A stretch of 64,000 nucleotides of DNA from Botryllus schlosseri. Lineage: Eukaryota. Where the stretch lies: NCBI GenBank assembly GCA_051294905.1, contig CM119371.1:28708001-28772000 (forward strand), written 5' to 3'. The number at the start of each line of letters is the position of its first letter. Within the stretch, counting starts at the first letter, position 1. This document shows, in pieces, positions 514 through 53,200 of the stretch. The notes under the pieces were generated by a model that saw only the letters and a program-made list of their open reading frames with translations, searched no databases and was not told where the DNA came from. The position numbers and the translations under genes are program-made.

Positions 514-1469
514 CAGATGAGTTGGATCAATTACAATAATTCAGTTGAATTACAATTACTCACTTGCATGTTTGTTTCAATTACATTACAATTACTCAAT
601 GCTAAAAATATCAAATTACAATTACAATTAAACATGTATTTAATTACAATTACAATACCAATTATAATTACTGTTAAACATGTAATTGATTCGGCAGAGA
701 GGTGTTCTTAGACAACCGTAACGACGTAATTAGCAACAATCTCAAGCTATTCATGTTTCATACAAACACAGAAAAATGTTTCAAGCTACTAACAACCAAA
801 AGTTTGAGCGACTAACAGCGTATAGGCTACATGACAGTCAATGAAATGTAATCAAACGATTATAGGCTACTCAGAGCTGAGTGAGGATAATGAAATGTAA
901 TTGGTAAGACGTCAGCGATAAGGATGATACCGATAAGATGTGTAAAATTAAAATAAATGCAAAAAGAAAGAACCTCCTCTTAACTACGAATTAGGCTACA
1001 ACATTTTGGTTCGCATTTACATTTTCACTTGCTTGGATGAACATTAGGGTGCGAAAATTTCTGGCCCAAGTAAATTTGATCAAGATTGGAGGTAAGATTG
1101 GGATAACATCTCGACAAATGCGTGATCAAGTTTGATGAAGCCTTGGTTGGAAACTTGAATTTCTTTTTGCAATTGTTGCAGCAAGCCTCGGTACTGGTCA
1201 AAGATTTAAAAATAAAACTCTGACCGTGGTGTAGGAAATGGTTCAGCACAGGATTTAGAAGAGTTTGGCTGTTTATCCATTTTTGAAATATTAGGATTTA
1301 GTTTAGCCCACTAGTTCTCTAACTTTTTTAGACACGCACCCCTTTATGACAGTGAAATATTTCAAATTTTCATCAAATTACAATTACACAAAATAGAAAT
1401 GCTTCAATTACAATTACATGAAAAATGCGATTTATTACATTCAGCTCAATTACAAATGATCCAACTCTG
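514..1469 (-). mobile_element. Non-autonomous hAT derivative with BED zinc-finger remnant
   Basis: TIRs CAGA(TGA)GTTGGATCA...TGATCCAACTCTG; perfect TSD GTTCACAT; CAATTA subterminal repeats; ORF 1025-1249 has CNNC..SSNLITHL. Confidence 0.8.
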
Positions 1470-4147: not shown

Positions 4148-4259
4148 TCAGACCACGCTCGGGACAGCGTAATCGGGTAATCTGATACTCAGCATCATAC
4201 AGACGACGAACGCGACAATCATGAGACGGAATTTCGACGGCGATAGCAACCCCAGGCAC
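4148..4259 (-). CDS. terminal exon 33, TM anchor plus tail (GCLGLLSPSKFRLMIVAFVVCMMLSIRLPDYAVPSVV*)
   Basis: ttccag acceptor, phase 2, TGA at 4150-4148; ORF 4148-4351. Confidence 0.8.
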
Positions 4260-7200: not shown

Positions 7201-10200
7201 GCACTGATTGTGAACTTGCAAGGCCAATCAAAAATTTGCTTAGTCTTGCCGCAACACTTGAGATGTGATGATCAAAATATCAGTTCCGGCGCATTAGCAG
7301 ATCCATGAGCCAGTCACATTTTGGTAGATCATCGTACACTACGATAAAGCAGAATAATTTGAGATCGATTTATCAAAAGTAAAAATTTTCTTCACGTTTC
7401 GCGCAACATGTTGTCACTCGATTTCTTGCTTTAAATGTTGTTACCCCTTTGTGAAAATGAAAGAATGCCTAATGTATCAGATTGAGTGTAATTATATTCG
7501 CGATTACGAGACAAAGTGTCGTTCAACATATGCGACATTACGTTTGCGCTAGCAGAAAGACCGTCGACGCCCGACGGTGAAACCTAGGCACGAAATGACC
7601 GATGCATGTTGGTCGAAACTTTCGATGTCGATATGTCCAGGCGGCGAATAGTCCAGTCCTTGCAAACTGCGCCCAGCGATATACAGCGGGCACGCAATAT
7701 ATAGTTAAGTGACAATATTATTGACCTATGAACTTAGAAAAATATTCGCGCCTCGCGCGGTTAGTGGCCCGCATAATAGTTTGTCAATCGAATGTGGCCC
7801 TTCGGCCAAAAAGGTTGGCCAGCCCTGGTACAGGACTATAGGGCCAGTAGTGCCGATCATCATTTCCTAGTGTGCCTTACTTTGTATTTATACCCTGTGT
7901 TGTGTGATCTACTGGTACCGGGATCGTCACCAACGCTCATAATAGTTGTTTGTTGGCATGAAATATTGAGTTCTTTAACCAATCAATCATAACAGACAGA
8001 ATCCAGAGTCGGTGAGGCTTATTGTATGCACACTTATAAACGCCTGTACAAATATGACAAAATTTCAAGAACTTATTGCATCACAATGAAGTAATGCCTA
8101 CTATTTTAAGGGAGATTTGCTAGCACCATCTCATTCCTTGATAGTGTCTGTCGTGAGGTTCATATAGGATTGTGACTTTGAAATCGCATGTAGGGTGCTG
8201 CCCATGAATTATATCAACCTATAAACGTCATAAGCATAAATAAAACAACTTTTTGTTGATGATAGGTCGTAGGGGTGGGTTTGACACCTGTATTATATTG
8301 GTCAAAGAGGTTTTGTGTAAAAAAAGCTTAGGAAACTCTGCACTAGACCATCATTTGAAGTTTCCCGGCCATTTTTCTAATCCGAATAACCTTAGTGAGC
8401 ATGCGACACAATGAAAAACGACAGTGGAGCATGCGCCACTTGAGCACGGGCGTGAGCAGGGCAGTACCAAAGTTTCCTGACCATTTTTTATATCTGAACA
8501 ACCCTAGTGAGTATGCGACACAATCAAAAACTACGACTGCGCATGTGGCACTCGAGCATGAGCGTTAGCAGGGTATCACCAAAGTTTCGTGACAATTATT
8601 CAACTCTGAACAACCCTAGTGAGCATGCGACACTATGAAGACGACAGTTGAGCATGCGACACTCAAACATTAGCATGAACAGGGTAGCTCAGAAGTTTCT
8701 TAACAATTTTTCAGATCTGAACAACCATACTGAGCACTGGACATTTGACCATGCGCCGTGATGAAAATCAACAGTTGAGCATGTGACCCAACAGTTACCC
8801 CTACCCTAACCCTGACCCAAAAAACCCACATTCACAGATGTCACATGCTGATACGGCCATGGACCAGGCAGAAGTGCTATTTCGGTGCAAACAAATGCAA
8901 TGTGCCCGACGTCAAGTATTTCCACACCACGCACAAGCGATACGTACCGCTGCGAAAGATTCAGCGACCAAATCGCGACATACGTTGACAATCTTCCAAC
9001 GTGCCGAGTACGAGCCAGCGTCAACATCACAAAAATGAGAAATCTCACGGGCAGTCCCACCAAGGTTCTATATCAACGGAACGTCCGAATATCATGGACT
9101 TACAAATTTTGCGACCAAATCGTCGTAGAATTCACATAATTTCGAAAGGCTAAGACTAGGCGTGGACCAAATTTAGTACACGAGTGATTCGATTCAAAAT
9201 TGAGTATTTGGCTTTGAGTCTATTCGAGTAATACTTAGGATAAGATAGCGTAACGGTGAAGCGTCCGGCTTCTTGATCGGTAGGTCGTGGGTTCAATCTC
9301 CTGCCGGGTCAGACCAAAGACCTGATTAGTAACACTGGTATCCATGCCTTTCCCGCTTGGCGATCGCCATTACCAGGATAGCATGGAGAGGTGGTGCAAG
9401 ACTTGAAAAGCCTTACAAGGTAATATATGCACCTTCCTTGTCCAGCAGCATATGCACATCATGCACTTGTAGTACTCATTAGGGTTGTCCATAATTTGGA
9501 AAATCTTACAAATCCTCGGTTGTAATGTCTTATTCGATAGATTATTGATAAAAAACGACACTGAGCCTGAAAGAAGCTCACAGAAAGGCCGTTAACATTT
9601 CGTGCAAAGCGTTTGAAAGTAGCTGCCGAAGAATGGGCGTGCCACCGACCATAGAACGGCGAGAAGACTAGTAATCAAGAAACCACGGCTCTTGATTGGA
9701 TAATCGGCTATGCTTCAATGACCACGTCAGCAGCAGCTTGCTGATTAGGTGAACAAGGAGTCTGCTACTGGCGGCGATTCTGAAAGCGCATTGTATGCAG
9801 GTTGACAGATAATGATTTAGGATTGATTAAGGGTATGTTGAGGTACGAAATACATAATGAACAAACAACAGCTGCTTCACAAAAACGTCTAAAGCATGAC
9901 TGCTTTATTGTGAAAGAAACCGCCGCAGCCTATATGCCTTGTTTTCAACGAGGGAAAGCAGAGGCGCTTATGCAAGTGGCGACGGATTCCCAGTTTTAGA
10001 AATAATATATAATTATTGAATACAAAGATAAAGCTTAACAATGACACTATAGTTTGTGTGATCTCATTGGGCTCAGGTTGTAGTACATAGTTGAAGTTTT
10101 GAAAGCTCTAAGGGTCGGCTGAATCAGCGGGTCACGCTTGGCACTTGTCAGATGCTTGCATCAAACTGTATTCACTTGCAAGTGTTGTCAGAGTCCTTGA

Positions 10201-13200
10201 TGATGACGCAGAAAAGAGACGTAAAAGTAAGCACATAATATGCTGGATATGATATGTCAAATTCCTTAATAATCGCGCAGAAAAGGGGTGTTTGTTACCT
10301 TTACACCCCTTTCTGCTGCAAGTGATTAGTAAGCATAGTTTGCATATCATATCCAGCAGGATTATGTGCTTAGCATTTAAACCTCGTTTCTGCGACATCA
10401 TCTAGGGACTCTGACAACATTTGCAAGTGAATACAATTGCTGCAACATCTGACTGAGTGCTAAGCGTGACCCGTCTGATTCAGCCGATCGCTAGAGCAAT
10501 CAAAACTTTAACTATGTACTGGAACCTGAGCCCAATCAGATCACCTAACTTATAGTGTCATTGTTAAGCTTTATCTTTGTATTCAATAATGATATATTAT
10601 TTCTGAAACTAGGAATCCGTCGCCACTTGCATAAGCGCCTATGCTTTCCCTCGTTGAAAACAAGGCATATAGGCTACAGCGGTTTCCTTCACAATGAAGC
10701 GGTCATGCTTTAGACGTTTTTGTGAAGCAGCTGTTGTTTGTACATCATGTATTTCGTACCTCAAGATACCTTGAATCAATCCTAAATCATTATCTGTCAA
10801 CCTACATACAATGCGCTTTCAGAATCGCCGCCAGTAGCAGACTCCTTGTTCACCTTATCAGCAAGCTGCTGCTGACGTGGTCATTGAAGCATAGCCGATT
10901 ATCCAATCAAGAGCCGTGGTTTCTTGATTACTAGTCTTCTCACCGTTCTATGGTCGGTGGCACGCCCATTCTTCGGCAGCTACTTTCAAACGCTTTGCAC
11001 GAAATCTTAACGGCCTTTCTGTGAGCTTCTTTCAGGCTCAGTGTCGTTTTTTATCAATAATCTATCGAATAAGACATTACAACCGAGGATTTGTAAGATT
11101 TTCCAAATTATGGACAACCCTAGTACTCATATGCACAGATTGTGTGTATATAGTGTATACATACCATGAGTCGGTGTATATGCCGCAAAAAACATCAAGG
11201 ACAAAATACATAACGCCATTTCATAACTACCAGGCAGGTGAGAATTTTGTATATACATCTTTTATGGTATACCACAAGGAGTATATACCGCCAGTTCTAC
11301 ACCACGTTAGAGGTATTTTTTCGACCATGCCTATTTCATTGCACTTGTCACAATGCTGTGAGTTGATCACGACTTCACAGATATGTCAGAGACAAATATA
11401 TATTTGTTCACCAACCTCAGTAGCTTTATGCTGTATGTTTTGCATGCGGCGATAAGGCTAATCCTGGATTCAAGGCTTCCACGGTGGAGAACACTATCGG
11501 ACCTATAACTTTCGTGGTTATATAAACTCTTAGGGGCAAGGAGCGCGTGATTACAGCACCTGAAAAACCACCTCTCACTACTTGACTCGCAATAGAATTA
11601 ATAGTCGATTCCGATTAGAGTACTCACATCATTGTGCTCAGCCCTAGTAATGAATCAGCTTCCAATTTCTAGTACTCAGAGAACGTCTGTAAATTTCCAG
11701 CACGAAACCACTCGTATGAGCAGAGGTTACACGCTATGACTAGTCAAGGGAAAACAGATATGCTAGCACTAAACCACGAAACAATCTCTGAACATTGGCA
11801 TATTCTATGCCAGTGGTTCTCAACCTTTTTTACCTCGCGGATCGGTAAAATTCCAAAAAATATTCGGCGGACCGGTGATGTTTCAAAAATTGAAATCAAC
11901 TCAAAACGTGAAGTATGAAACTGTTTTATGCAAGTATATAATGCTAGAGAGACACATTTTGAGGGGTTTGATCGTAAATAAAGATGTTCAGTTTATTGTG
12001 GCATTCATTTGATTATACCGTAGTGGGTCTGCTGAGTCGAGGTAAAATTGCCCTGCCAAAATAAACGTGCTAGCGCCGAGAGTCTTTTACAGTCTTTTGC
12101 GCTGTCAGCATGTACTTCAAAACTTCAGCATTGTGGCATTATGTGGCCTCAGTCGTCGCTGCACATTATTATATCACTTCACTGAAATATGTAAGGTTGG
12201 AATTTGCAATTTGACGTCACATAACGTCATAGGTACATGATTGCGTTCACACAGAACTTTTCAAAAAGGTTCCCGTTCACACGAAATTGAACCTATCAGA
12301 GGTTCATACGATCCCTACTATGAATAGGCTAAATGCGCCGCACGAAAACACCTGACTACAGCTATACCTGGCCATCCACAGAATTAGGGCCGATCGTCAG
12401 CCTAATTGCCCAAAATCGGCAGTCTTCGGCCCCACAAAGCAATAAACCAAACTTTTAGCTAGGGGGCATCACCCCCAGACCCCACAGTTGGTTGGTTGTT
12501 TCCGCCAGGACTTCGAACGCATTCAATTTACTGAGCATAGGCAGATAGTTTTCAATAGGCAATTCATGGCTGAATCAGTCAACAAATTGTTGATTGCATA
12601 TATATTGCTGTAAATTTGTAGACTATCATAATTATCAGACTTTCTGCTAGAGTTGATTGAGGTGTCGTGTTGGAAAATTTAGGGCACGTAATAGATAATA
12701 ATTAAACATATTCGGGTGGGTCTGTTGGAATAATTACTTTATTGCACGTCAATATTTCGTCACCTTACTGTCTGTTATCTTGTGACTAGACATTGAAATC
12801 ACCCAAGCGTACTAAACCAAAGTACGCACACTATTCCCAATTAGTGTTTCTTCATCGGCAAATAATTTTACTCTGGGCTTTGTCATTTGTGCTATGGAGC
12901 ACAGATGGCCAGGACAGTGAGATTAGGTACCAGCCATTATGGAGCCTATGGACAAATGTACATATATATATATCGAAGTTATCGGTCAATAAAGGGAAGT
13001 CATTTTCGGCCAAAGTTATCCCACTGGTGAGCTTATCGCACACTTTCCGGATTCCTATGTTAGCCTGAACTTCATTACGTGATGGTGCGTCCCTTCACAA
13101 AAGGAATGAAGAGAAAACGAATGATCGAGCAAACTGCGCGGATTTGTGAGTCAGCTCGTATTAGTCCTTGCCGCTCATATTTCGTAAAATGACACGGATT

Positions 13201-22200: not shown

Positions 22201-25200
22201 CGGAATGTCAAGGACGGGCTGTCGAGCATGAAATGGGAGGGGTTAATACCCCAAAACTCTCCCCCCGACTACGCTACTGTTGGTAGTGATGACTCTGGGC
22301 CCTAGCAATGGCTGCAAGAACATCACACAACAGGTCGCACGACTCACGACACATGTTTTCCAGCTGTTGTTTGGCAAGGTTCCGAGTCACAAGCCAATCA
22401 CACTCTTATAATTTTGACTCGAGTCAAGTCGAATCACTTTCAAGTCTGAGTCCAAGTCAGCGAGCAGAGGGTCGAGTCCGAGTCATGGTGTTTTGACTCG
22501 AGTCAGAGTCCGAGTCATTATGTTCAACGTTCAGTTTTCAGTTCAATCCACTTTCAACTCTGTAGTTATTTTCCCCAATCCTAACAGTTTCTGGCCCTAT
22601 TTTCCAAGTATCAGGACTGATAGACGAAATACCAATAATGTTGTAACTTTCAATACAACATCCATTGTAAAAGAATATTTATTTAACTCGAAGACTTTTT
22701 GGGTGCCTCTTTTCAAGAGTTAATCACAGGTATGTTGGACGTACATCTCAAAGATTGTTTGAGCGTATTAAGCAGCATATCCCCAAATTGATTCGGTCAA
22801 AAACATGCGCAAATACTCGCACGGAGCTTGCACGTCAGTGCAAATTGGCTGCCAAAACAGAAGACTGCTATGACGATTACCAAGCATATGCTTCGTCAAT
22901 TGGTCAGCATCTGAGTGAAAACCTCGCCTGCGCACAGCACTATAATGACAATATGTTCACTGTCAGTGCGCGTGGCAGATCTTTGTTTCATTTAAAAGTG
23001 TTGGAGTCTACTCCTATTCAGTTGAACAAGCCTATTTTATGCAGACAAAAAGATTTCCTCTGTAACCTACAAATTTCTCATTAGTGAGCGTTGTTTCGTG
23101 CGCATAACTGTTTATTTACAAATTGCGTTGCTACTATAGTACCGTATGTCCGTATACTTCTAGTTAGTTATTGTTGCCATTGGTACAATGCGAATTTCAT
23201 CGTCAGTATTTTGATTGTTGCGTCATACTTTGCCTTTTTGGTTTTGCTTTTAAATCTGTTTAAATCCCTTCAGTGTGCCGTTCTGTTTAAATCCCTTCAG
23301 TGTGCCGTTAACTCGTGATAAGAGGCACCCGAAAAGTCTTCGAGTTCAATAAATATTCTTTTACAATTGATGTTGTATTGGAAGCTATATTCTGTACCAC
23401 GAACCAGCTATTTTTAATGTGGTAGGTAACTCTACTATTATTCAAAGTTACAATGAAATGTCCGTCTTGGTCGTCCTAGTCTTGAGTAATATGATTATTA
23501 TTAAAACAATATCAATCGTAAGGCTAGTACCGTGCAACCGCGCAAGCTCAGCTTCAGCGCCGTTCTTCAGCTTAGCAAATTCATCTTGACGACTGCTCAA
23601 CTGCGCCAGTTCATCTTGCGCCAAATTCCATTTTTCGTAGACCTGCTGCAACTGTCGTACCAATCGAAGCACAACACAAAAGTTAGTCAGCAATCAGCAG
23701 GGATGCCCGAGGTAAATAACACCAGTTCTACATCAAAACAAAGATAACTTGCTAGTTATTCGACCATACCAATTTTATTCATACAATTGAATAGTGTATT
23801 CATATTGAAATAAACACAAATATTTTCGACTGACACTCGTCAGGGGTAATCGTCAGCAACTAGTAGAGAATTGGAAAGAACATTGTATATCAAGAATCGT
23901 ATCACAAAATATGACGTCACCAGCATGAAATTTCAAACGAGAGAGCGTTCAATGTACTATTTTCAGGTGATACACGAACTCCTTTTGTTGACGGAGTTTG
24001 GGTTGGTGTATTTTGATAAAAGTCGACTCCAAGGCACCCAAATGGAAGTGTGAACGGCCCCTCCCAACGGCGCGAAATCTGTCGTTGGGAGACGCGATTA
24101 CCCCTGACGAGTGTCAGCTGAAAATATTCGGGATCATTTCAATATGAATATACTATTGAATGGTATATTGAAGTTCTGTACCTCCAAGAAGCTCACGAAT
24201 TTTATTGCACAAATCTATAATTCTTGTATATAAATCAAAACAAGGAGCATATTATTTTCAGCACTACAAAAATAATCTCTCATCCCTCGACGCAAATCAT
24301 TAGAATTAATACTCGATTCAGATTCGAGTACTCAAATCACTGAGCACATCCCAATTAGTCAGTCAAGCAAAGTAATTTTATGACCTTAAATTTCTACTAA
24401 CACTGGAAGTACTGTTGTAAATCGCTAATTCTAGTTGTATTCCAATATAAATTTACAGTGTCACTCCTACTTGAGCACAAACGCTGACCAGCTTTGAGCA
24501 CATCTGACAAGTAATAAACAGTTCAACCATAACTGTGTATGTTGTAACCAAGTTGCGTTCAGCCTCACCTCATCCTCCCACGCTTCGATGACGAGCTTCT
24601 TCGTTTCATAGGACACTTTCAACGAGTGGTTATCGCATTTAAGTTGTCTCACTTCAGCTTAAATTTGAATGGAGATCGTCAGCGCAATAACAAGAACCAC
24701 AACGGAGGGGTGGTGCAAGACTTGAACAGCCTTACAAGGCTATTTCTGTACCTTCCTTATCTAGCCGCATTGGGGCTCTTCAAAAATCGAAACGATGTTC
24801 ACCAAATTTGGTTCAATTCCAGCCAGTGGAAGCGGAGTTATCGCCGTCGAAAAATTTGGATTATGAATAAAATAGTATTTACGGTGACCAATTCTTCAAT
24901 TATTTATTATAGCGGTGCCCACCGTAAATACTATTTTATTCAAATCCAAATTTTTCGACGGCAATAACTCCGCTTGTACTGGTTGGAATTCATCCAAATT
25001 TGGTGAACATCGTTTCTGTAGACAACCTAACACTTTCATGGGGTGAACAGAAAATTTTCAAATTTTTTGTTACTTATTTTTATATAATAAATAGAACCTT
25101 TCTTCTCCTATAGCAATGCGGCTACTGGTTGGAATTGAACCAAATTTGGTATGTAGGGTTAAATTAGGTAACCTAACAATTGTTTTTCAAGTAGCCAGTA

Positions 25201-28200
25201 CGATTTGAGAAAAAAAGTCATTTTTGAAGAGCCCTAAGCCGCATATGCACATGATGTACATGGTGACTCGACTTGACTCGAGTCAAAACTATAAAAGTGA
25301 GATTGACTTGTGACGTGGTTACAACCATGATACAATGTCCTAACCTGTCCTACGTAAACAAAGTCGCAAGGTTCCGAGTCACGGATCGTACAATTATAGT
25401 TTTGACAACAGTTAACTATTCGCTGACGATTACCCCCGACGAGTGTCAGTAGAAAATATTCGGGTTTATTTAACATGAATGCACTATTCAATTGTCTATT
25501 GAAGTTGTGCACCTCCAGGAAGCTCTTCAAAGTGTGAAAAGTAGTATCATCACAATAGGGACTGTGATTGCAATATGACTTGTCCTTCTGAACGCGAGCT
25601 TGAATCGTAACATGGCTCATTATTTTCAAAATTTAGACCCAAATTGCAAATCAACATTTTGCAAACTTGAGACTCGAATTGAAAGATGAACCATGCCGGA
25701 ATCATGACATGTATTGCAATTTACGAATTGTACACCGGCATATTTTTATTCTGTGGCACAGTCTACCAAGCCAATCCAAAAACAAATACAGCCGTCATGT
25801 AAGAGTACCTTGGGCAAGTTCAACAGCTTCATCCATGCCGCTTAGTTTTTCTTCCAGTTTCTCCACCTGTTCGGCAATCAGTCAAGACGATTAGTAAACC
25901 AGTAACAACCCATTTCAATGCAGACTTTCTTACACTACGAAGATCAAATCAATATTTAAGAAACAATGCTAATGTCAGAACGAAAAATGCATCAGTGATT
26001 TCAGTGAAGTAACAACAACTGCTTCACTGAGAATAACGATATGTTTAACATAGCTCAGGTGTCCAGATGAAAGGTTTCATTCCTGCCCAAAAACAGTAAA
26101 GGGTTGAAAGGCTGTTGTAATAAACCCTGCGGAGTTTTGAAAATGCGCCTCAAGCTAGATGCCACAACTAGAAAACCCTGTTCCACATTGAAGTTCATGC
26201 GTAAAGTCGGTTTGGTTTGATCCCGATAAAATAAAATTGAAAAAATTTCTTCAGAATTGAATCTACTTGGTTGGTTGCAGATTTTTAAATTTCTAGTTCT
26301 AGTTTGGAAAGGTCTGTCTGGTCGTAACCATTAGTAAGCATCATATTGAAGACACGAACAAGCGACTTCCGACAAACAAAATTCACAAACCTCTTCACAC
26401 TTTGCGCTATAAGCGGCGAGGTACAGCATGCAGTCAATCGTCTGTGATTCAGAGTCTCGCGTTTCCACCGAGACTGTTTGCGTCTCCGACTCGCACTGCG
26501 ATAGGTAGACGTAAGCGTATCAGTTCCAAAATATCACAACGGCATACTAGTTGGATGGTTCAGGAAATTGTCAGTCGTATATCAACAGAAAGTACGTATC
26601 CTCATTCATCAAGTAGGTTTTCTAGATTATAGAAAACACCGAGCCATTACTAGACATAGGCACATATTCTAATTGCATTGATCGAAGTCGAGCAGTTGAG
26701 AGACCATCTTTACCAGTGCTGATATTATACATCCGTTGCCCTCGATAGTTAAATCATCAACAAGAAACGCAGTTGACACAGCATTGTACAAAAATTAGAA
26801 TAATCGATGCGAACAGATGCCCCAAGCTCAAAGTTCTATTTTTAGAATTGGTGTATAATCTAAAAATACTGCATTGAGTTCAAGTTAAATCTTTGCCTAA
26901 ATTATTCGAATTTTCATGCCGGTGACGTCACATTTTGTGATACTATTGTTGATATACAAAGTTATTTCCAATTCTCTACTAGTTGCTCACGATCACCCCT
27001 GAGGAGTGTCAGTCGAAAATAGTTGGATCAATGTAAATATATTATTGGATAGTATACTCATATTGAAATGAACCCGAATATTTTCGGCTGACACTTGTCA
27101 GGGGTTATCATGCGCAACTCGTAGAGAATTGGAAAGAAAATTGTATATCAGCAAAACAATCATATCACAAAATGTGACGTCACCGGCATGAAATTTCGAA
27201 TAATCGGTGTTGCTCCCTCCTAGGGTTATGCAAGTGTTCTAATAAATCCATTCAATTGTATATGATGTTCTGTACCTCTAAGAAGTTGTAAATATATCAT
27301 TAAATCACCATCACACTCACGCAACACAATAGACATATTCGAAGAGCTTCTTGGAGGTAGAGAACTTCAATATACAATTGAATAGTATATTCATATTGAA
27401 ATGAACCCGAATGTTTTCGGCTGACACTCGTCAGGGACAATCGTCAGTAACTAGTAGAGAATTGGAAAGAACATTGTACATCAACAATCGTATCACAAAA
27501 TATGACGTCACCAACATGGAATTTCGTATAAAAGAGCGTTCAATGTACCATTTTTAGATGGTACACGAACTCCTTTTGTGTATACAGAAACAAGTATCTA
27601 CACAGAGCCACTAACCTCATGTAATTCCGTGCCATTCGTGTAAGAAAAAGAGAGATCGCCGGTCTGCGTATCGGACTCTCGCATTCCCACGGAAACAGTC
27701 TGCATCTCCGCCTCACACTGGGATTGATAAAAGCGCGCTTGACAGTTTCATAATGACACAGCGGTACACTGATCTCATAGTTTAATATTTATTTTTGCAG
27801 TTTTATTGCTTATATTCATTGTTAGACCGCTCCAGTTTTTTCGTCTGTTACTTTTCGTTCAGTAGTCTAGTTCTATTTATGGTTGCGCATTTTGAAAATC
27901 CAGAATTTGTATACGTCTACTACCGTTTTCATTGTGTCGCACACTCAAATGTCAGACAATAGCATGTCAAGATTCCTATTCAGGGTCTTTTCACAGCAAA
28001 ATTGTCAACATCCAACATATTTTCAAACAGTTGGCCGCAAATCAAGCGTATATGTGACGCTAGCAACGTAAAAACAAGCAACTAACGATAAACGAAAGCC
28101 ACAAACCTCGAGCGTTTTCACAGGATTTTTGCCGGACGCCGTAACGGTTTGTGTCTCTGCCTCGCGTACGTCGAACGAAGCATCTCCGTTGAAAGTAACA

Positions 28201-31200
28201 CGGTTCTCTGAAAGATATGTTCATTGTTTAGTCGACTTCATCATTTCATAAATATATATAATATATATATTATATATGGGCTAGGCCATGGTAGTCTAAC
28301 TAACAGCCAACTTCTATACATCATAAGCGCAATTTCGTTAACAGGAGGAAGCTTATCTGATACCTGTATTATTATTGGCATTTCCGCTTGTACTTAAACC
28401 TTCATAAATTGATGCTATCTTGCTAAATTTTCAAAGCCCCTCTATTTTTAGGGTGGAGTGAAAAATTTTGAATTTTGAATCAATTTCTATAACAATTTTG
28501 ATATCGTGCACCCTCTAGTGGTCGTGTCATTTCACAGAATGAGCCAAAAATAGGTAATTTCGCTATATATTGATAACCGCTGACACTAGAAAGCTGATTT
28601 CGGTCTTAAAAGATGCAGAAGCAACAAGTTTCTATCTCACTTCCACAGAAATTTGTCTTGAAAATATAAACAGAAAAAAATTATAAGCGAATTTTTAATT
28701 TTTACACCGTTTTTAGGTAAAATTAGGCACTGAAACAGTGGGTAAGACGCCAAATGCGTGTAGTAATTGATTTTATGACTCACAACTCCATATTGAAAGT
28801 ATAGACATTGCAAATCTGTATTGAAAGTCACACCAAGTCACCCTCCTTTTTTCACAGGATACACGCATGGTTGTATTCATTGAAAATGTCACCGTATGCA
28901 TAGTCAGGATGACAATTTGGCGCAGATTTTTATGAGAATTAAACTTTTAAGCATACAATTTATACGTTCACATTGAAATAAACCTGTATATATTCTTCTG
29001 ACTCTGACACTCGTCAGGTGTAATAGTCATCAACTAATTGAGAATTGAGAAAATCATTGGATATCAACAAACGTATCACCGAATATTATGTCACCGGCAT
29101 GAAAATTCGAATAATGAAGTCGAACAGATGGCTTTAGACTCAATGTACCGTTTTTGGATTATACAAGAGCTCATTCTGTTGTCTGATTTTATTTCAACAT
29201 GAATTCGTCATTCAATAGTATATTGGAGTTTTGTAACCCTATCCCCAAGAGTATCCAAAAACCTTTCAGCAGAATCGCAAAGTAAAAATTGAAATCTCGT
29301 GGGATCCATCAGCCAAGTAAAATTATAACTCGAGATCTCTAGCAAGCCTACCGTTGTCGAAAAGTATTTTCCTGGGAGACGACGCAGCCAGGAATGTGAA
29401 AGACGGCAGCTTGTTCTTGTGCACTTTGACGATCGGAGAATCGAAATTGCCCGTCCTGCGAGTGGCGGTGCCACAAATGGGCGAGTCGTAGCAGTTACGT
29501 TCCAAATTCTGCGGCAGGAAGAAAATAGGAAGTGGATGTTTTATATTTTTGTCGATGATTTGCGGCATATACACAGACTCATGATATACATACACTTGAT
29601 CTGTGCATATGCATACCATGAGTGCATGAGGTAGGCTACATATGCAGCTGGACAAGGAAGGTACAGATATAGCCTTGTAAGGCTTTTTAAGTCTTGCACC
29701 ACCCATCCCAGGTATCTGCATGCTAAGCATGACAATTCAAAATCACTCAAAATTCCGTAATCAAAACGAGTCCGGTCAGCATATTAGGGTTTCTACTGAA
29801 TCAATACTAGTCAGCCCGCAAGATTATCGGACCACAATCTGACATACCGGTATCGAGTTCGCCTACCGACACATGCAGTATTCATTTTCACCCCGTCCTT
29901 TTATGCTACCCTTTCTTAAATCCAGTGCGCATGTCTCTTATTTACACGCTGCAGGCCAGGGTGGGTGTCTGATTAAAAGACTACTCCAATTCGTTTTGGC
30001 TCCCACTTATATTTTCATTATATCGCAATCTTGTGACGAATTGATTTGATAAAAATTTCAATAAAATACTGATCTGTATTAGATATTTCCAAGTCTGAAT
30101 CCAGAGTCGAAATGGATTAAGTCATACTTGCTCGAAAAGACATTTAAAAATTCAAAATTACTAGAAATTACGTAGTTCAATAGAGATCTGGGTTTACGAA
30201 AATGGTAAATCCCGATCCGGCCGCCATTAGGAGGTCGGATTTCATATATTTAAACCAGAATTCTGAATTTATTCCCCACCTTGTGACCCACTCGAAAAAA
30301 ACATTGACCTATAGCTAATTAGCTAGTTCTGAGAGTTTTGAGTCTGATTTAAAGTGGAATGTCCCAACTAAATGGGCTGGTAGAATAGAAATTGTTCTAG
30401 CTTTTCGTAGAAGATTAAAAACTTTGCGCATTACCACACTGCTACCATTCTAGTTAAATTCACCTCGTCGGCAGTGGTCAATTCCTGTTCGATACTCTGC
30501 TTTACAGTACTGGAGTCGTTAAAGCTTCTGGTCCTGAAAATTTGAAGAGATTCTCAACACAGCAGCCTAAGTACAGTCGTTGCAATACCATAATACAGGT
30601 GATCAAAGTAGTCACTATCTTAGAGTAGATATAGAGCAGGGGTCACCAACTGAAAATGGGTCCCAAACCACTTTTTGAATTTCGTAGTGGCCGCTGGCCG
30701 CATAAATTCAATATCGATATATAATAGGCAACCACGTCTTAAAACTCTACGACAGCACAACGCTGTGCTACCTAACACACACTCAGGGAATACAAATTCA
30801 ACAAAAAATCATCATCAATTTCATTCTATTTTGAACTCTTGAGATGTGCACGATTCCCGGAAACGCTTTTCAGCGACTAAGGATTCGATATCGGGGCTAG
30901 CGAGAGAGGTTACTAGCTGAAAGACCATCTCCACGTAAAGCTTGATCTTGCGGGGAAGCCCTAAGACAATGGTTCTCAAACTTTTTTAGACACGCCCCCC
31001 TTTATGATAATGAAAAAAAAATTCGCGCCCCCCTAATCGTCATATCTCAAAATGCTACCAGAATGCTAGCAATCCCAACGGATAGTTTGATGGCATTGAA
31101 TAAGGTTATAACTTTTGATTGGAGAATACTTTGTTATGAATTCCGGACAATACACTGAGCAACAACGATGAATTTGAGCAACACTGAGCAACAAACTCGT

Positions 31201-34200
31201 TCAGTTGACTGCAGCTCTGCGCCCCTTCAGTTGCTTCCATGCCCCCACAAGGGGGGGGGGCACCCCCCAGATTGAGAACCACTGCCCTAAGCCGTTTTCT
31301 AAGCGTCTCGGTCTTAGCAGTGTTTGGGTCATTGCACGTCACGGCAATATGCTTATTGATATCAGCTGACTCTCCCTCGGTGGCAAGCTGTTGCCATCGC
31401 CAAAGCCATTTTAGTTAGCGACGGATAGTGATGTTGGGCACAGGAGAATATCTTATTTTGAAACAGCAACAGCAATATGTTGAAACTGTCGTCAAATTCA
31501 GCATTCTAAAATGGTTTTCTTAGATTTCTTCCAAAATCTCAAGTCAAGTAGCGGGCCGCAAAATATGACCGCGTGTTGCTGACCTCTGATATAGAGTGTC
31601 TAGAAGTAGGCAGAGATGGTTAAAGCAACCATCGTTGGCACCAAGTACAACTACAAGTAGCAATTTCCAAGTAAAAAATGACACTAAGTAGTTTACTCCT
31701 AGATTCCAAAAAATTTCAAGTAGAAGTGGAAGTACTCTATAATGTAGGTTTTCAAGAAAGAGCACATGGAACTATAAACGGACTACATATCAGAAAGGAG
31801 ATCGTTAAACTGAGATTTTTGAAGGCTCAACACTCTGCAAAATTTGTTTTCAAATTCTACCAATCCCCAAGCAAAATAAGGTTCAGAACAATTGACACAG
31901 AGCACATTACTTTGACAAGGTTAGCGCTACGCATAGAGCTTGCAAAATTGTAGCTTTAATAAGTAATCGCATCATCTCGTAACAAACTGTAGTATGTGCA
32001 TAACACTTACATGGAATACTCCAATTGCTGAGCGTGAAGCTGTTCGATTAGCCTCTTCTTTTCCTCGTTGATGGTCTGACAAGAAGCAAAGTTTCATCAG
32101 CGACACAACGACATTATTTCTATGCATCGTGACATAGGGATCAGGAATAATTTCGTAACGAGGTGGCTATCAGAGCCCTACCGATATCAAAATTTCACAA
32201 TATTATTCGTTTGGGCCAATATTTGTTGTCGAGAATTTCACAATATTTCCACTAAATCCAATTCAGTTGCAGGAACAATAGCAAGCCTATTATTATGCCT
32301 ACAAAAATTAGCTTCCGATAGTCCATTCCCTATTCAATTACTATCGGAATGTTGCGGCCATCCATCGTAGAATGCGGATTCTTTTACGGTTAGCTTACCT
32401 CGTACATACTTTCGAAATGATTCAACCTATCTTCTAGATCGGCGACTTGTTTGGTTTTCTGCAAGGAGAAACAGCAACCCTTTAGTGAACTATATAATCA
32501 CCGACAAAGTGATCAAACATAATCTGAATATATCATCTCTTTATATAAGACCAGAGTTGGCTGCAGCAGTCGGCGCTGGTATTCAAGTACCGTAAATTTC
32601 AATTCAATTACAATTACATGTAGCTATTTCCAAGACACATCAAAACTACTCCAAGTCGAAGAAGAAATTTGCCATCCCTGGCATGAAATCAGACTTGGTT
32701 AAACTAGTAAGCATTGGTACTCAAGTAGATGTGAAAGTAATGCCATAAATTTCTACTCGAAAACAATTAGGCTATAAGCGGACATTTCAAAGACATTGTC
32801 AAAACTACTTCAAATGGAAGGAGAAACTGATAGGCCAGAATACCACACCAGTACCGTACCTAGTTTCTAAAAGCAGATCTGTTCGAGTGATCAGATTTTT
32901 TTGAGCAGGTTATCAAGATTGCAATTTTCGCGACTAACACAAAACGAATATGACACTACAAGTAGGAGCAATATTGGGAAATGCATTTAGTTACCATGAT
33001 GCAAGGTATATTTCTTGCAGTTTTGATCACAATTTCACTCGGAAAAAGTGTCACAAACTCCACTACATTCCACTTTACAAAATCAAAATTGTAGAAAGCA
33101 AGTTGGATTGCCTAAAAAACTGTTGAAGTAGAATTGGGGGTATTCTAAAAACATATCAAATTAAGAAAGTATTGAAGTTCTGCACCTCCAAGAAGCTCAT
33201 TAAGAAAGTAGTACAAGCAGGAAAACCTTGCTTCAACACTACAGTAAAAGTACAAATCGTCACTAAAGTGTGCGGTTCAAACTCGAGTGATAACAGTGCG
33301 GTAGCCTAGTTGTATCAAAACTCACCAAGGCACATGCGTCCCTTTCGGTCTCCCATCTCAAATGCGTATCTTCGAATTTGTCCTTGACAAGAAACACATC
33401 GCCACTTAAACGTCAGGCATTACCGAAGATTTGCGAAGAGATTAAATCCCTGACTTTTTAACCCAAAATTCGAGCGTGAGCCTAACTCTGACTAAGATTT
33501 TGTCAAATCTCACTGTATTCATTACACCTTTTTTAACCGTAGCAAAATAACAGAAATATACAATCAAATTATGACATCAAAACGGACTTCACAGAACAGG
33601 TAAGGCACCTCACACAAGTGCTATAGTTGATTTGAGCTAAGCTTTTGCTACTAAGATTATAAAGATAACAAATTCAGAGTTATATCAAGCCCAGGACATT
33701 GTACTAACAACGGTTAAGCTATGACCTCGAATACAGCAATGAGTGATCACATAATTTATGTGAATACAAAAAATAAATACCTGTAATATCTGGTTGTCCG
33801 TCTGTATATTCGCACACATATCTCTTTCTTTCTCGAGTTGTGTGCACACTATGTCGTACTGTAATTCCAAACAGAATAATTTAATATTGAAGGCATATCA
33901 CAGTTTCACTTCATGCTTCGCAATTTTAATTAGAATCTATACCTTGCATGAGTGGGCTACTATGTAATCGAACAATTTGAGCATGAATTAGGATTAGATC
34001 AATATAGAATTGAAGATTTTCGACCGGTCTGAGATTACAATTTTTCTAAGACAACCTTTGTTTGTCCATAAATTATCAGAAAGACAGTTTTCGACTCTTT
34101 TCATTTGTTTGCATTGGAGCCGACATCAATCAAAATACAGCAACCTAGTCTGTCCCAACAGAAAGAGTTTGTGCGCTATCTAAAAACAGTACATTTCATG

Positions 34201-37200
34201 CCGGTGAATTCATATTTGGTGATACGATTGTTAAAGGGGCTCTGCACTCTGAAAATGATGTGGTCTCAAATTGATGGGCATTGAAAGAAAAATTTTGGTC
34301 GCAGCCGTTTTCTTCAGAACGCCACCGTAATGGAGCTGCAATGTATTGAAATTTCCATAGGGGCAAAACGCTCCAGCAGTCACGCAGAGATCAAACTTTA
34401 CATAGTTATATATAGTGTATAGGCCGATGTTATGAAGGGAATGGAATACACTAGTCCCGATTTTGACATAAATCTCCTGACTGGACATCTTCCGTTGAAT
34501 GCGGTATCTAAACCACCTTGGCATGTACGACATATATCCTTCATAACATCGGCTGATAACTATATACAGTTAGATCTCTGCATGACTGCTGGAGGGTTTT
34601 GCCCCTATGGAAATTTCAATACATTGCAGCTCCATTACCGTGGCGCTCTGAAGAAAACGGCAGCAGCCAAAATTTTTCTTTCGTTTTGCCCTTCAATTTG
34701 AGACCACATCATTTTCAGAGTGCAGTGCCCATTTAATATACAATATTCTTTTCAATTCCGTACTAGTTGCTGACTCGACCAGAGCAGCGTCAACCAAAAA
34801 TATGAATATATCATTCAATTACACTGACTTTGTTCTGAATCTCCGACAGCGTGATCCTGTAATCGTCAGCCTCTTCCTTCGCAACTTTCTCCCGATACGA
34901 CGCACTCTCCACGGCCTTCTGCAGTCTGTGATTGGCAGTTTGAATTTCGTCTTTTTCCGAGAGCAGCTCCTGGATGCCGGGCTTCACATCTTGAATTCTG
35001 AAGAACATTACAGATTACAACTGCAAAAGTCACTGCCGTATGCCATGGGGCTGGGAGTGGGGGTCACACACTAATACCGAGAATGCTGTTACTGTGAATG
35101 TGTACATCAAGAGAATGGACAATTTAGGGCTGTTCAGAATAACTATTCTTTTCAAATTTTACTGGCCACTTGACAAAATTGTTAGATAGCTTAAAAAACG
35201 CGGCACACCAGTTTTGGTTCGATTCCAACCTGTAGAAGCATTGATTTACGAGAGAGAAGTTTTGGATTTAATAAAAGTTTTTTCAAGGTAAAAAAATGTC
35301 AAAATTTTGATTTTTTAGGTAAAAATCTTCCGTTTTTAGGTTAAAAAAACGCCCAACTTATTATAGACCTACCCACCGTAAATACTCTTTTTTTCAAATC
35401 GAAAATTCTCTACTGCAATAACTTCCACTGGTTGGAATTGCGCTAAATCTCATAATCATCTGTTTTTCATACAACCTAACAATTACGTGTCCCGCATGTC
35501 TATGTGCAAGGTGCGATGGCACACGCAGTAGAATTACCTTCTGAGGTCTTTTTCCAGCGCGGCAATCCTCTGCTTTTGCAGGTCATATTCCTCGTCACCC
35601 ACCTCGAGCTGGCGCCTCACGTCTGAGACTTCACGTTTCAGACCCGTGTTGACGCTGATCAGATTCTTGTTCCTCAGAAGTAGCTCGCCAACATCGCTAA
35701 GGAAAGGACAAACAGCTTCTTGAAGATACACAACTTCAATATACAATAACATATCTGCGAGGTCGTGATCAGTCCTCAGCATTGCCATAAAATGCAATAA
35801 GTAGCAGGGTTGTCATGACTCGACTCGGGTCCGAATCTAGTCACGATTTTCTGATGCCTCGAGTCATTTTCTCAAAATAGGGAATAACTCGACTCGATTA
35901 AATCTGTATATTGACTCGACTTGGATTCGAGTCATTGCAGATGACTCGAATGAAGTCACATGACTCGAGACTCAGACGGCCAAGAACAACATTTCATTGT
36001 AATTTCGAAGAATAGTAACGTAACCACCCTATTGGTGTTTCGTCTATTGGTACTAGTACTTGAGACCGGAAACTGGAAAAACTTAGGAAAATTAGTATCT
36101 TATAATGCGAACTATTTGATATCACTAAACAGAGTTATAAAAGTGGGTTCAACAAGACTTGACCTGGATACTGAGCAGTCAACACAATGACTTGGACTCG
36201 AGTCATAATACCATGGTAGAACCACTGCTCGATGACTTGGACACGACTCGGTGGTGAATTGAAAATGACTCGAATCAAAACTATAAAAGTGAGATTGACT
36301 TGTGACTCAGGAGACTTGTGACTAGGTCGCAACCCTGATAGGTAGGCCTAGTAGGTACGGTCTACAAAATACCAAATAATCTTTAATACGATGGCCTTCA
36401 TATTCACTGTGGTGAACGAGCGATACTCGACTCGAAGTCTAATACTCGATTCAGAATCAAATGACTCACACTGCACTTAGTTTTCCATGGCCCTAGCTAG
36501 TTGTTACTACATGCAATTAAATAGGTATAGACGAAAACACACCAAATTCTCTTTATGGGGCATGCAACTTTCGTACCGCCATAGAGATAGTAAAGAAATA
36601 TTGAGCGATGCTCGAATACCCGCATAGCCTACTCGATTCAGAATCGCATCACTGATACGCTCGATTTCACTCAGCTCTAAACATCACCTATAACACATGC
36701 GATGAAACAGGACAAGCCTCAAAACTCAACTGTTCCATGATGGACATGGTCGAAATATCCCCACCGCACCCCTCCAGCTGGCTGCTCGTATTCAAGAAAG
36801 ATTCGTCTGGAAAGAATATTCAAAGAGATTGTGAAAAGCAAGGACTATGGCTCCGCAATTTTACCGGATCAGACCGATTCCATCCATTTTGGATTGCTTA
36901 CTTTGAAACATGATCAATGATCATACTAGTTAGAAACCAACACACAGAGGTGGTCAGTAACGAGTCAGTACAGTACTACAGTGCTAATTTTTTTGAGTAC
37001 TCCTTTCGGTTTCGTTTAATCTTTTCTGAGTCTAGTTGCACCAGTTAAGTAGTTGTTTTAGACTTCTGGCTGTTCTGAGGAACTGCTAAAAGCATGTGAC
37101 CCCAAATCTTCACTTTGAAACCAGACTAACAACCAATAAAACCCAATCAAAGCTTACCAGATGAAGGAATATCGCCAGCATTCAAGCTATCCCCAAATGA

Positions 37201-40426: not shown

Positions 40427-41192
40427 CATTAGTCATACATTCGTTAGTAGCAGGCATACACCAAAACTTAGCAAGCCAAGTCACATAATTTTGTTGCATA
40501 CTTATGTTCTCATGACACTAATCGCTTACTAGGCAGCATACGTAGCGGCCTACGTCTTCAGATGAACTTCACACATGCATAGTGCATACGGAATATTCAG
40601 AGCGCGCGTACGTTCGTAAATAAACAGAGACATTGCCAGTGAAGGTCAAATGAATCTCGTGAATTCGACCTAGCATACAAGGCTTTCTCCGAGTCTAAAT
40701 TGTAGGTCTTTTCTTTTCCTGGCGATACTTAATTACCTAATACTCAATCTTTGCTTGGCAGTCGTTTCAATGCAATATATATAGTATGTGATGATGAGCT
40801 ATGCACCTTGCACCTGCGAGACGTTGCTGCATATCCAATCTATGGTCGACTAGATTCATGATTCATACGGGGTAATTCGGAATTTTATTCATGATGAGAT
40901 CGACCCACAATCCCACATACTTAATTCCAGCAGCGCCTGTATAATCGCATCGGTAATTCATGCTGTGTAACCGAACGGATATTCCGCTTATAGTGCAGTG
41001 AGTATAATTACAGACTTATAGAGACTTTATTGTATTAATTTGATTAGGCGAATGTTGGTCGGAAATAGTGTGAGAAGCAAAGACGAACGTTGACTGATGA
41101 TTGCAGTCAATTATATCCGAATACACGGTAATAGCCGGTAATAACCTGTTTATCATGCGCTCGTCCACTGCCATCTTACATATGGAATAACA

Positions 41193-42014
41193 GTGTGGGG
41201 ATGCTCTTACAAGAAGCATATCAACAAGCTCCAGGTATTACAAAACAAAGCCAATAGGATTATATCTAATATACCTGCACGTAGCAGCGTCAGTCCTGAA
41301 TTTAGAAAATTGGGCATTCTCAAGGTCTCGGATTTGTATGAATTTGAAATTGTAAAAATCATGAAACAATATAATGAAAGAACATTACCTGAATATTTCG
41401 ACAACTTTTTTCAATGCCCCAATTCAATTAACCATTATAACACAAGATTCTCACAGAATCAGTCCCTATTTGTTAAATTGAATTCATCAAGACTGTCAAG
41501 AAATTCCCTATCTTATATAGGTGTGAAATTTTGGAACAATGTACCAACTTTGTACCGTACTCTTCCTTATCATACATTTAAAGCTCGCTATTGCAAATTT
41601 ATATTATCCAAGTACTGAGAAGAACATATCTCATGACCACAGCGATGTTGTTTGTTGTTTTGATTCATTTAATATGCTACAATAATATTACCACTGTGTA
41701 CATGGGTCAAATTGTTATTTTCTGATCACACTGTTAACTATGGTAACCGCCCTTCACTAGTGTTGCTGTCTTTTATTTACTTTTGTTTATTTCGTTACTC
41801 TTTGCGGTGCTACTTGACTGAGAGAAGAAATTGATTCATATTATAATCAATACTGCCAATATGCTTGGGTGACTCCGGCCTAGAAGACTTCGGTCATATC
41901 GGGTCTCCCAGTCTATACCGTGTAAATTATAGTTAGGAAGATTTTAAAAATGTATACTATTGGACGTGAATGTTTGTGGACATTGCCTTTACTATATTTC
42001 ATGGTTGACGAATA

Positions 42015-42045: not shown

Positions 42046-42839
42046 GGTTAACGCTGTCGGAGTGAAGGTTGGTAGCCTACAGTAGGGTAGCAGCATGTGC
42101 TGCCGCCCATGGCTTTCGTTGAAAATGCCCCCACCCCCTAAGTAGACCGCAGCGATTTCGACATAGTTTCATGTACAAGCAATCTTTTCAATAAAAAGAT
42201 TTCCAAATAATTTGCCGCGTCCGAGAAGTTCTATATTGCTTAAAACATAAGCCTCGCCGTCTCAGCGTATATAAGGCCAAAAATAATAAAGACGAGAAAT
42301 GTTGAACGAATGTATTAGGCAAATATAAAATCGATAGCCGCCTCAAAACTGAACCTTTCGGGCTTTCGCCGAAGCGAAATCCGCAACAATATCCTCTAAA
42401 TCAGGGGCGGGCAACATACGGCCCGCGGACAGTTTCACGTCTTACATGATAATGTGGCCCGCGGCCCAAGTCCGCCGAGATTCCCCGCTACTTGCGTAAA
42501 CGTCAAATTTTAGTGACTGTATGAATTATATACGTGTGTGCGCAGCGTGCGAGAGTAGAGCTTACGCGTAAGTTCGTCGAAGCGAGAAGACTTGCATTAT
42601 ACCATAGTAAATTTGGGGTGCTGGGCTTATAGAGCGCCTTGAAATCTTATTAAGGATTGCACCGTGTGTTGATTGATCAGAGAGAAGCAGACATGGCGGC
42701 GCCTGTATAACAATGATGTTCTCAAATCCACATTGTCTTCGTCATTATCGGCGAGATATAGTTTTGCAGTGGCATTGCTGTCGGTAAAATACCTTCATTA
42801 AATACCACTTATCAGGTTTATTAATTAATATGTTCATCG

Positions 42840-43555
42840 TTTCAAAACATTACAAGACTGCGATACAATGAAAAGATAGGAGGGTGTCGAAACAACTTGG
42901 AGTAGCCTTCAAGATCAGACACCCACCTTAGTCTAGCTAGGCGAAGTAAATAAGAGGCATGCACAATTGCACATGCACACTGAATGAAAAGTAATGCAGA
43001 GAATATATGACGCAAGCGACAAAATGAGGTGGCATGTGGCGGAGGGCGAGGTCGATGTTAGGTCGTGGTCCGGTAATCCTGAAGACTAGCTAGTATTGAT
43101 TTAGAAGAAATTGCTTGTATTTCGACTTGAATAATGCGGACATGCTCGACCACTGTCGGATCGCCGGCGAGATGCTGTTCCACAATTGGGGTCCGGCATA
43201 CTTGATAGAGCAATGCGTTTTCTTGTATTCAGTCCTGATCATATGGTAGTTGTTCTTCGTTGACGCGCGTGTGCTGTATACTTGTACGCTTTTGTCTCCG
43301 AGGTGAAGTAGAAATTTGAGGGACATTGGCCGCAATGGAACTGATACACAAACTTGGCAATTTCTAGCTTCCTCATATCTTCTAAGTTTAGAAAACAAAT
43401 CTTTTGAGTAGCGATTTATCAGTTGCACATCCAGGCCCCCGTGGGGCTTTGGCAATGATTTGGATGATCCGATGTTGAAGTTTTTGCAGTGGGTCAATTG
43501 AATTCTTGCAGGCAGCACCCCAACAAAGAATTCCGTATTGTAACTTTGATAGGAA
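42840..43555 (-). mobile_element. CR1/L2-type LINE 3' fragment
   Basis: ORF 43090-43518 ends YSTRA...SIKYAGPQLWNSI...FKSKYKQFLLNQY. Confidence 0.7.
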
Positions 43556-43560
43556 TTGAC

Positions 43561-52879: not shown

Positions 52880-53200
52880 CGCACGGAGCTCGCACGTCAG
52901 TGCAAATTGGCTACAAAAACAGACTGCTATGATGATTACCAAGCATATATGCTTCGTCAATCGGTCAGCATCTGAGCGAAAATCTTGCCTGTGCACAGCA
53001 CTATGATGACAATATGTTCACTGTCATTGCGCGTGGTAGGTCTGTGTTTCATTTAAAAGTGTTGGAGTCTACTATTATTCAGTTGAGCAAACCTATTTTA
53101 TGCAGACAGAAAGATTTCCTCTATAACCTACAAACTTCTCATAAGTGCGTGTTGTTCCGTGCGTGTAATTGTTTATTTACAAATTGTGCTGCTACTATAG
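52880..53200 (+). mobile_element. Penelope-like GIY-YIG 3' fragment, paralog of 22815-23140
   Basis: Highly similar DNA; MFTVIARGRSVFHLKVLESTIIQLSKPILCRQK. Confidence 0.8.

Follow-up and report, generated by a model that had tools for sequence, protein, structure and literature searches.

Does a series of glutamine-threonine (QT) motifs, grown by exon duplication, provide an adaptor protein with a ladder of sites for the dynein light chain LC8, and does splicing set the number of those sites? The question is raised by a minus-strand gene in a 64,000-nt stretch of Botryllus schlosseri DNA (contig CM119371.1, positions 28,708,001 to 28,772,000), hereafter the window. Modelled by eye, the gene has ~34 exons running from 39603 to ~4148; exons 1-20 join in phase to give 604 codons without a stop, and exons 21-34 are candidates only, as their phases do not all close. 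Our reading, to which we assign a probability of roughly 0.45, is that the gene encodes weak LC8 sites between coiled coils, three of them expressed and two carried by exon 15. The original prediction for this DNA had placed five QT motifs on exons 14-16, and a six-frame scan recovered all of them there (Table 1). The pattern [DE][AS][DE][TMS]QT fits all five and occurs nowhere else in the 604-residue model, in which the motif glutamines are residues 410, 430, 442, 464, and 476 after splicing. Successive glutamines are 20, 12, 22, and 12 residues apart, i.e., separated by linkers of 12, 4, 14, and 4 residues. The QT anchor is kept in 5/5 motifs, motif 2 being an MQT with no S or T ahead of the glutamine, and two or more [T/S/V/I/M]-Q-T anchors are present in either form of the protein (five encoded, three expressed). 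Shuffling the 604-residue model never placed five motifs within 75 residues (0/20,000) and shuffling the model without exon 15 placed three within that span in 39 of 20,000 trials, tests that overstate the independence of the motifs, the copies being duplicates. Indeed, the cluster is due to duplication and not to independent origin.

Exons 15 and 16 are paralogous, as had been predicted. They begin with TGTGAG and TGCGAG, respectively (TGYGAG), are both of phase 0/0, and share 44/63 nt and 13/21 amino acids over their first 21 codons, where 18 first, 17 second, and 9 third codon positions are identical. This block holds 10 synonymous changes and nine non-synonymous ones, which correspond to a synonymous divergence (dS) of 1.72 and a non-synonymous divergence (dN) of 0.215 (Fisher p 0.0009), or a dN/dS of ~0.13 between the copies. 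Past the motif block the similarity stops, only 15 of the last 39 nt being shared. The predicted likeness of the upstream introns was also borne out: the acceptor flanks of exon 15 (27718-27773, minus strand) and exon 16 (26496-26551) are identical at 34/54 nt, compared to 15.6 on average and at most 29 among 351 pairs of the gene's other exons. These results show that the exon duplication is real, that the motif block is under purifying selection, and that selection is concentrated on that block. The possibility that exons 15 and 16 are two alleles, brought about by an assembly artefact, was ruled out, dS being >1 and far above the allele differences seen in RNA run X18 (below). Since the donor flanks of exon 14 (28067-28106, minus strand; in repeat family D8) and exon 16 (26351-26390) match at 26/38 nt (control maximum 19), exon 14 is a member of the same duplication series. 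The two motifs within each of exons 15 and 16 lie 12 codons apart and look like the product of an older internal duplication.

A run search listed no RNA run as containing this sequence. Eight of the 24 runs listed were mapped, seven of them raw-read RNA runs, and two of these (X12 and X16) gave no mapped read. The gene was expressed in one of the five informative runs (X18); X4, X6, X8, and X17 showed depth on repeats only (6-13% of each read in X4, X6, and X8). Contigs of a further run, X1, cover introns too and thus provide no test of transcription. In X18, the exon 12-13 joint was supported by 69 reads, and loose read ends matched by hand continued into exon 11 (15 reads, 30/30 letters), into exon 18 (48 reads, 29/30 letters), and, from the exon 17 acceptor, into exon 16 (22 reads, 23/27 letters, agreement 0.97). 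At the exon 16 acceptor, 45/45 junction reads continued into exon 14 at its 3' end (27/30 letters, agreement 1), and exon 15 had a depth of 0 in both covering bins. The zero depth alone is weak, exon 14 also being thinly covered through allelic divergence, and it is the junction that is the evidence. The gene is real and spliced, reads connecting exons 11-14 and exons 16-18, and since exon 15 was skipped or missing in X18, the protein there has motifs 1, 4, and 5 only. Of the splice-tuned valency proposed in the original prediction, the in-frame transcript without exon 15 was found and no transcript with it was seen; absence from transcripts, which had been named as telling against the array, holds for exon 15 and not for exon 16 in this one run.

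The X18 reads also allow alleles to be compared. In exon 16, 6/7 of the differences listed are synonymous and none falls in an anchor residue (three were classified by computation and four hand-read from a loose read end); two synonymous differences lie inside motif 5. At codon 12 of exon 16 (26462-26460) the X18 allele encodes M and the window T; exon 15 also has M there, and the M of X18 is either a retained ancestral state or a result of gene conversion. Hand-read differences in the exon 14 tail (28107-28140) comprise two non-synonymous and one synonymous, and the four in the exon 16 tail (26391-26420) are all synonymous. The spacer formed by the exon 14 tail drifts, whereas the helix start in the exon 16 tail does not.

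The motifs had been predicted to lie in a disordered linker between coiled coils. Heptad and helix heuristics gave low coiled-coil and helix scores for residues ~331-480 and high scores for 111-330 and 481-580, which upholds the position between two coiled coils; FoldIndex values in the linker, themselves heuristic, were mixed (-0.29 to +0.18), and disorder is supported in part. By the same heuristics, the exon 15 tail is non-helical and the exon 16 tail begins the second coiled coil.

The genome searched (495.5 Mb in 219 contigs; its introns and canonical LC8 genes are those of an animal-type eukaryote) contains two near-identical canonical LC8 genes, L002:1498-1833 (minus strand) and L003:1519-1704, 48 kb apart. 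Three further dynein-light-chain-like genes occur elsewhere in the genome, and one of them, L004, is divergent and apparently single-exon. Judged by sequence, LC8 binding by the protein encoded here is reasonably likely, each single QT site probably being weak. Binding would call for avidity, as in KANK1, and would depend on pre-pairing of two chains by the coiled coils and on the four residues that separate motif 4 from motif 5. According to Jespersen et al. (PMC6607443), a small residue at -3, a hydrophobic residue at +2, and multiple like charges are unfavourable to LC8 binding and a polar residue at -4 is favourable; such flank rules are preferences with known exceptions. The -4 position is favourable in 5/5 motifs. 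KANK1 builds LC8 rods out of sites whose peptides do not bind singly (PMC12803091). In ASCIZ, linker length governs cooperativity, and the motif linkers here (4-14) fall inside the range of 1-41 given for that protein (PMC10046861). The Drosophila RNA-cargo adaptor Egalitarian has a reported site, AESQTLS, that belongs to one class with motifs 1 and 5, with a small -3, an acidic -2, and a hydrophobic +2 residue; the source calls the interaction putative, and removal of LC8 from dynein left motility unchanged (PMC6056235). A complex prediction with four LC8 chains and two exon 16 peptides returned a median of 0.39, compared to 0.28 for one unrelated control, with the peptides outside the tool's calibration; it used a metagenome LC8 that is 87/89 identical to the genome's own, and was not used as evidence.

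The following mechanism would account for such an array. The flanking coiled coils would hold two chains in parallel, as a putative dimer, and LC8 dimers would bind the paired weak sites through avidity; the linker, right after coiled coil 1, would thereby zip up as a duplex both short and stiff. In a dynein adaptor like Fue/Lrmp and KASH5, such a duplex would lengthen or stiffen the arm. Exon 15, if used as a cassette, would contribute 34 residues bearing two further sites; its intact, strong splice sites and non-helical tail fit an added spacer. Its two splice scores are 5.5 and 8.6, and those of exon 16 are 5.3 and 5.9 (leave-one-out medians of 25 other exons, 5.8 and 7.2). The protein is probably a multivalent, weak-site LC8 client, i.e., a new member of a kind already known.

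Multivalent LC8 rods are already known in KANK1, ASCIZ, and Nup159, and a KASH protein of the nuclear envelope that binds LC8 is also known (UNC-83). DLC-1 is an LC8 orthologue. C. elegans UNC-83 reportedly binds DLC-1, a light chain of dynein, and differs from the present case in having one mapped region, near its KASH domain, the passage in question describing no tandem array (PMC4284225). Linker L2 of KANK1 likewise has close, singly weak, non-ideal motifs in the linker of a coiled-coil adaptor, and stiffening or lengthening has been proposed for it; however, 7-15 LC8 dimers were measured on KANK1, whereas here three expressed and five encoded motifs, on duplicated symmetric exons, are known from sequence (PMC12803091). 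ASCIZ/ATMIN and Nup159 are alike in that their QT motifs stand in tandem, joined by linkers of short to medium length (PMC10046861, PMC10886578), and Nup159 is located at the nuclear envelope, in the pore (PMC10886578). ASCIZ also has ETQT-type motifs (PMC10046861), but these carry I or M at -3 (PMC12057147), whereas those here carry A or S, and the protein families differ. Our search for literature on LC8, TQT, and KASH together returned a review whose passages make no link among them; none of the matches listed joined LRMP with LC8, and none obviously described LC8-site valency set by alternative splicing. No report of an LC8 array in KASH5 or LRMP was found in the literature searched, most subscription papers lying outside it, and the sequences themselves were not inspected.

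By resemblance only, we take exons 1-4 to be EF-hand-like, and the N-terminal and late exons presumably resemble Fue/Lrmp and KASH5. The model has a predicted N-terminal helical domain, a predicted coiled coil, a further cytoplasmic region, and a candidate C-terminal hydrophobic helix with a short tail, an order of parts like that of zebrafish Fue/Lrmp and of mammalian KASH5/CCDC155 and LRMP/IRAG2, and its predicted coiled coil of ~220 residues compares with one of ~190 in KASH5 (PMC3787381, PMC10071310). Expression in just one of five informative runs is a further likeness. Residues 1-460 of KASH5 activate dynein and residues 1-349 do not (PMC10071310); the KASH5 stretch past residue 349 directly follows its coiled coil, and the QT linker has the matching place in the model. 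The candidate last exon was joined to exons 14-16 by the eye-made model and not by reads, and on that model the protein is probably membrane-anchored, with a predicted tail anchor. The modelled protein may be described as built like Fue/KASH5 in its architecture only, and not as a member of that family.

Several results weigh against weak LC8 sites in an adaptor of this kind. Inclusion of exon 15 was found in 0/45 junction reads, in one run and among the best-supported read ends listed, a count compatible with rare inclusion. Measured against the published flank rules, 5/5 motifs have a small -3 residue, 5/5 have two acids, and 4/5 have V or I at +2. We counted by hand the affinity sheet of PMC12057147, whose 62 rows comprise 57 distinct octamers. 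In favour of LC8 sites, an acidic -4 is preferred (31 binders) and a small -3 tolerated (12); an acidic -2 occurs in six, S at -1 in four, and I at +2 in two, with M at -1 and V at +2 in none. All six binders with an acidic -2 carry I, M, or K at -3, the combination of acidic -2 and small -3 being found in 0/57, and the M at -1 of motif 2 is likewise absent among them (PMC12057147). Many TQT peptides fail to bind LC8, and the PRSS36, ZZZ3, and EIF2S2 peptides, all three acidic at -4 and -2, showed no binding in isothermal titration calorimetry (PMC6607443). As to the family, the locus has no match to the KASH_CCD profile (PF14662), its coiled coil of ~220 residues being drawn by heuristic, or to the KASH profile (PF10541); 13 and 22 exon-sized pieces gave no Pfam match above cut-off, all of these being weak tests given small exons and divergence; and the single-exon searches, short queries again, found no homologue. 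The modelled C-terminus, VPSVV, has no terminal PPPX, a motif said to be indispensable to SUN binding (PMC8115505). No profile or sequence match here links the locus to Fue, KASH5, or LRMP, and the KASH5/LRMP label of the original prediction found no database support.

The individual searches were as follows. The EF-hand pair profile PF14658 had six matches elsewhere in the genome and none at the locus or in single exons, where an intron would split the domain, and the MRVI1 profile (PF05781) gave no candidate genome-wide, none in controls, and no single-exon match. Homologue searches with two short queries, exon 7 (37 candidates) and exon 15 with its flanks (one candidate), gave none at E 0.01 and none at E 10, respectively. 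Exon 30 had four matches among 1.84 billion representatives, all to unrelated helical-repeat proteins, and no usable match in an Atlas search, in which the best match of exon 3 (0.87, SAP-like) is a lead only. In the PDB, exons 2, 3, and 34 had no match when searched singly, exon 6 had 24 weak matches (best E 0.018), and exons 15 and 16 had four, none of them an LC8 complex. The sole KASH match above cut-off in the genome, L095 (E 2e-12), lies on another contig and is probably a nesprin.

The skipping of exon 15 in X18 may be explained in more than one way. The likeliest is that exon 15 serves as a cassette in cells outside the sample. A Fue/KASH5-like dynein adaptor with an arm made of duplicated symmetric LC8-site exons, switched by splicing from a 3-site to a 5-site duplex right after its dynein-activating coiled coil, appears improbable. 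Alternatively, exon 15 could be absent from the X18 haplotype as a presence/absence allele, or be recently silent, such that motif number would vary by individual or lineage. The skipping in all 45 reads and the zero depth fit this explanation, and the X18 individual does diverge from the window (three of the last 30 nt of exon 14 differ). However, the intact frame, the strong splice sites, and a dN/dS of ~0.13 argue that both copies have long been translated, and X1 has a single-copy-like depth of 5.75 over the bin with most of exon 15, a weak indication in that intron and exon 14 make up the greater part of this bin. We hold this explanation to be unlikely.

A second alternative accepts the selection on the repeat and denies its partner: the repeat would serve as a spacer kept by selection, or would dock some other protein, without useful affinity for LC8. 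The closest tested peptides and many TQT peptides do not bind, no tallied binder combines an acidic -2 with a small -3, and a similar QT repeat occurs in folded domains of a bacterial adhesin (PDB 6xi3, E 0.0007), showing that LC8 clients are not alone in having the pattern. Yet Q-T has been kept five times while the flanks drift, LC8 clients typically have such a setting between coiled coils, and weak sites do function in KANK1; this alternative is doubtful.

S/T-Q clusters, as defined for ATM/ATR, are also worth considering, and the array could be an acidic cluster for kinases of that type in a germ-line nuclear-envelope protein. TQ or SQ stands in an acidic context in 4/5 motifs, including all three expressed, inside 70 residues. 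S/T-Q kinases need no T after Q, but that T is invariant in 5/5 motifs, and motif 2 has kept QT while its S/T is gone, leaving MQ. A kinase role as the explanation of the array is quite improbable; LC8 and kinase roles are compatible, and phosphorylation could turn LC8 binding off. That exons 15 and 16 are mutually exclusive, with valency fixed at three and a swap of site strength and of a helix leading into coiled coil 2, is very unlikely: they are tandem paralogues of 102 and 105 nt and the same phase, only one was seen in use, and the first motif of each would sit 20 residues behind motif 1, but a 1,120-nt intron separates them, double inclusion is in frame, none of six tests for docking/selector RNA pairing beat shuffles (best 19/200), and the 22 exon-17-acceptor reads match exon 16 (agreement 0.97).

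If LC8 binds, a membrane-anchored coiled-coil adaptor would join the short list of proteins stiffened by weak, cooperative LC8 sites, and the locus would show how such an array grows, a 12-codon unit having doubled within an exon and the symmetric exon having then doubled in turn. The natural transcript without exon 15 offers a ready comparison of three and five sites for adaptor length and dynein activation. Were the protein a relative of Fue/KASH5, the array would lie in the region past the coiled coil that KASH5 needs for activation, and a true splicing switch would control how long and how stiff a tether from nucleus to motor is. Otherwise the locus is an ordinary exon duplication in a linker.

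Table 1. Exons, predicted domains, and QT motifs of the gene, with positions in the window.
Feature	Positions	Strand	Basis or remark
Exons 1-4: N-terminal helical domain, ~110 residues	37158..39603	-	Open, in-phase model; expressed reads without coverage
Exons 5-12: first predicted coiled coil, ~residues 111-330	30464..36806	-	Heptad heuristic; junctions 11-12 and 12-13 in run X18
Exon 14, phase 1/0, bears motif 1	28107..28207	-	AG/GT ends, frame, 45 X18 reads to exon 16
Motif 1, VREAETQT, next residue V	28146..28169	-	Exon 14; six-frame scan
Exon 15, phase 0/0, 102 nt, bears motifs 2-3	27616..27717	-	AG/GT ends, open frame, paralogy, dN/dS
Motif 2, CEAEMQT, next residue V	27697..27717	-	Exon 15; no expression seen
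Motif 3, MRESDTQT, next residue G	27661..27684	-	Exon 15; no expression seen
Exon 16, phase 0/0, 105 nt, bears motifs 4-5	26391..26495	-	AG/GT ends; read depth in X18, with 14-16 and 16-17 joined
Motif 4, CESETQT, next residue V	26475..26495	-	Exon 16
Motif 5, TRDSESQT, next residue I	26439..26462	-	Exon 16
Exons 17-19: second predicted coiled coil, ~residues 481-580, begins in exon 16	23531..25866	-	Heuristic; junction 17-18, 48 reads
Candidate last exon: predicted hydrophobic helix and short tail, end VPSVV-stop	4148..4259	-	Hydropathy <=1.96 over 19 residues

Copies of an abundant inverted repeat resembling a miniature inverted-repeat transposable element (MITE) lie in the introns around exons 13-18 (26892-27580, 24083-24194, 25415-25531, and 29004-29249), with two or three in the intron that separates exon 15 from exon 16, and these copies collect piled-up reads from other genomic copies. 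A 121-nt MITE-like pair (26892-27012 with 29004-29124) flanks exons 14 and 15 jointly. The gene also contains a 648-nt inverted repeat (9480-10127 and 10475-11122, 95% complementary, 347-nt loop). A candidate exon near 10871 was dropped, as it sits within this repeat; candidate exon 29 (10410-10490) spans the loop and one arm, and is doubtful or could hide in a pre-mRNA hairpin. Elsewhere in the window, open frames at 22671-23084, 52936-53229, and 41145-41618 (plus strand) and at 43090-43560 and 42346-42441 (minus strand) had no Pfam match above cut-off, and we take them to be remnants of retroelements or transposases from their resemblance to these. A BED zinc-finger fragment at 1025-1297 (minus strand; E 0.001, under cut-off) is likely a DNA-transposon remnant, and two tandem arrays are present, one of 3.5 copies of a 72-nt unit (1646-1893) and one of 3.4 copies of a 112-nt unit (8358-8736).

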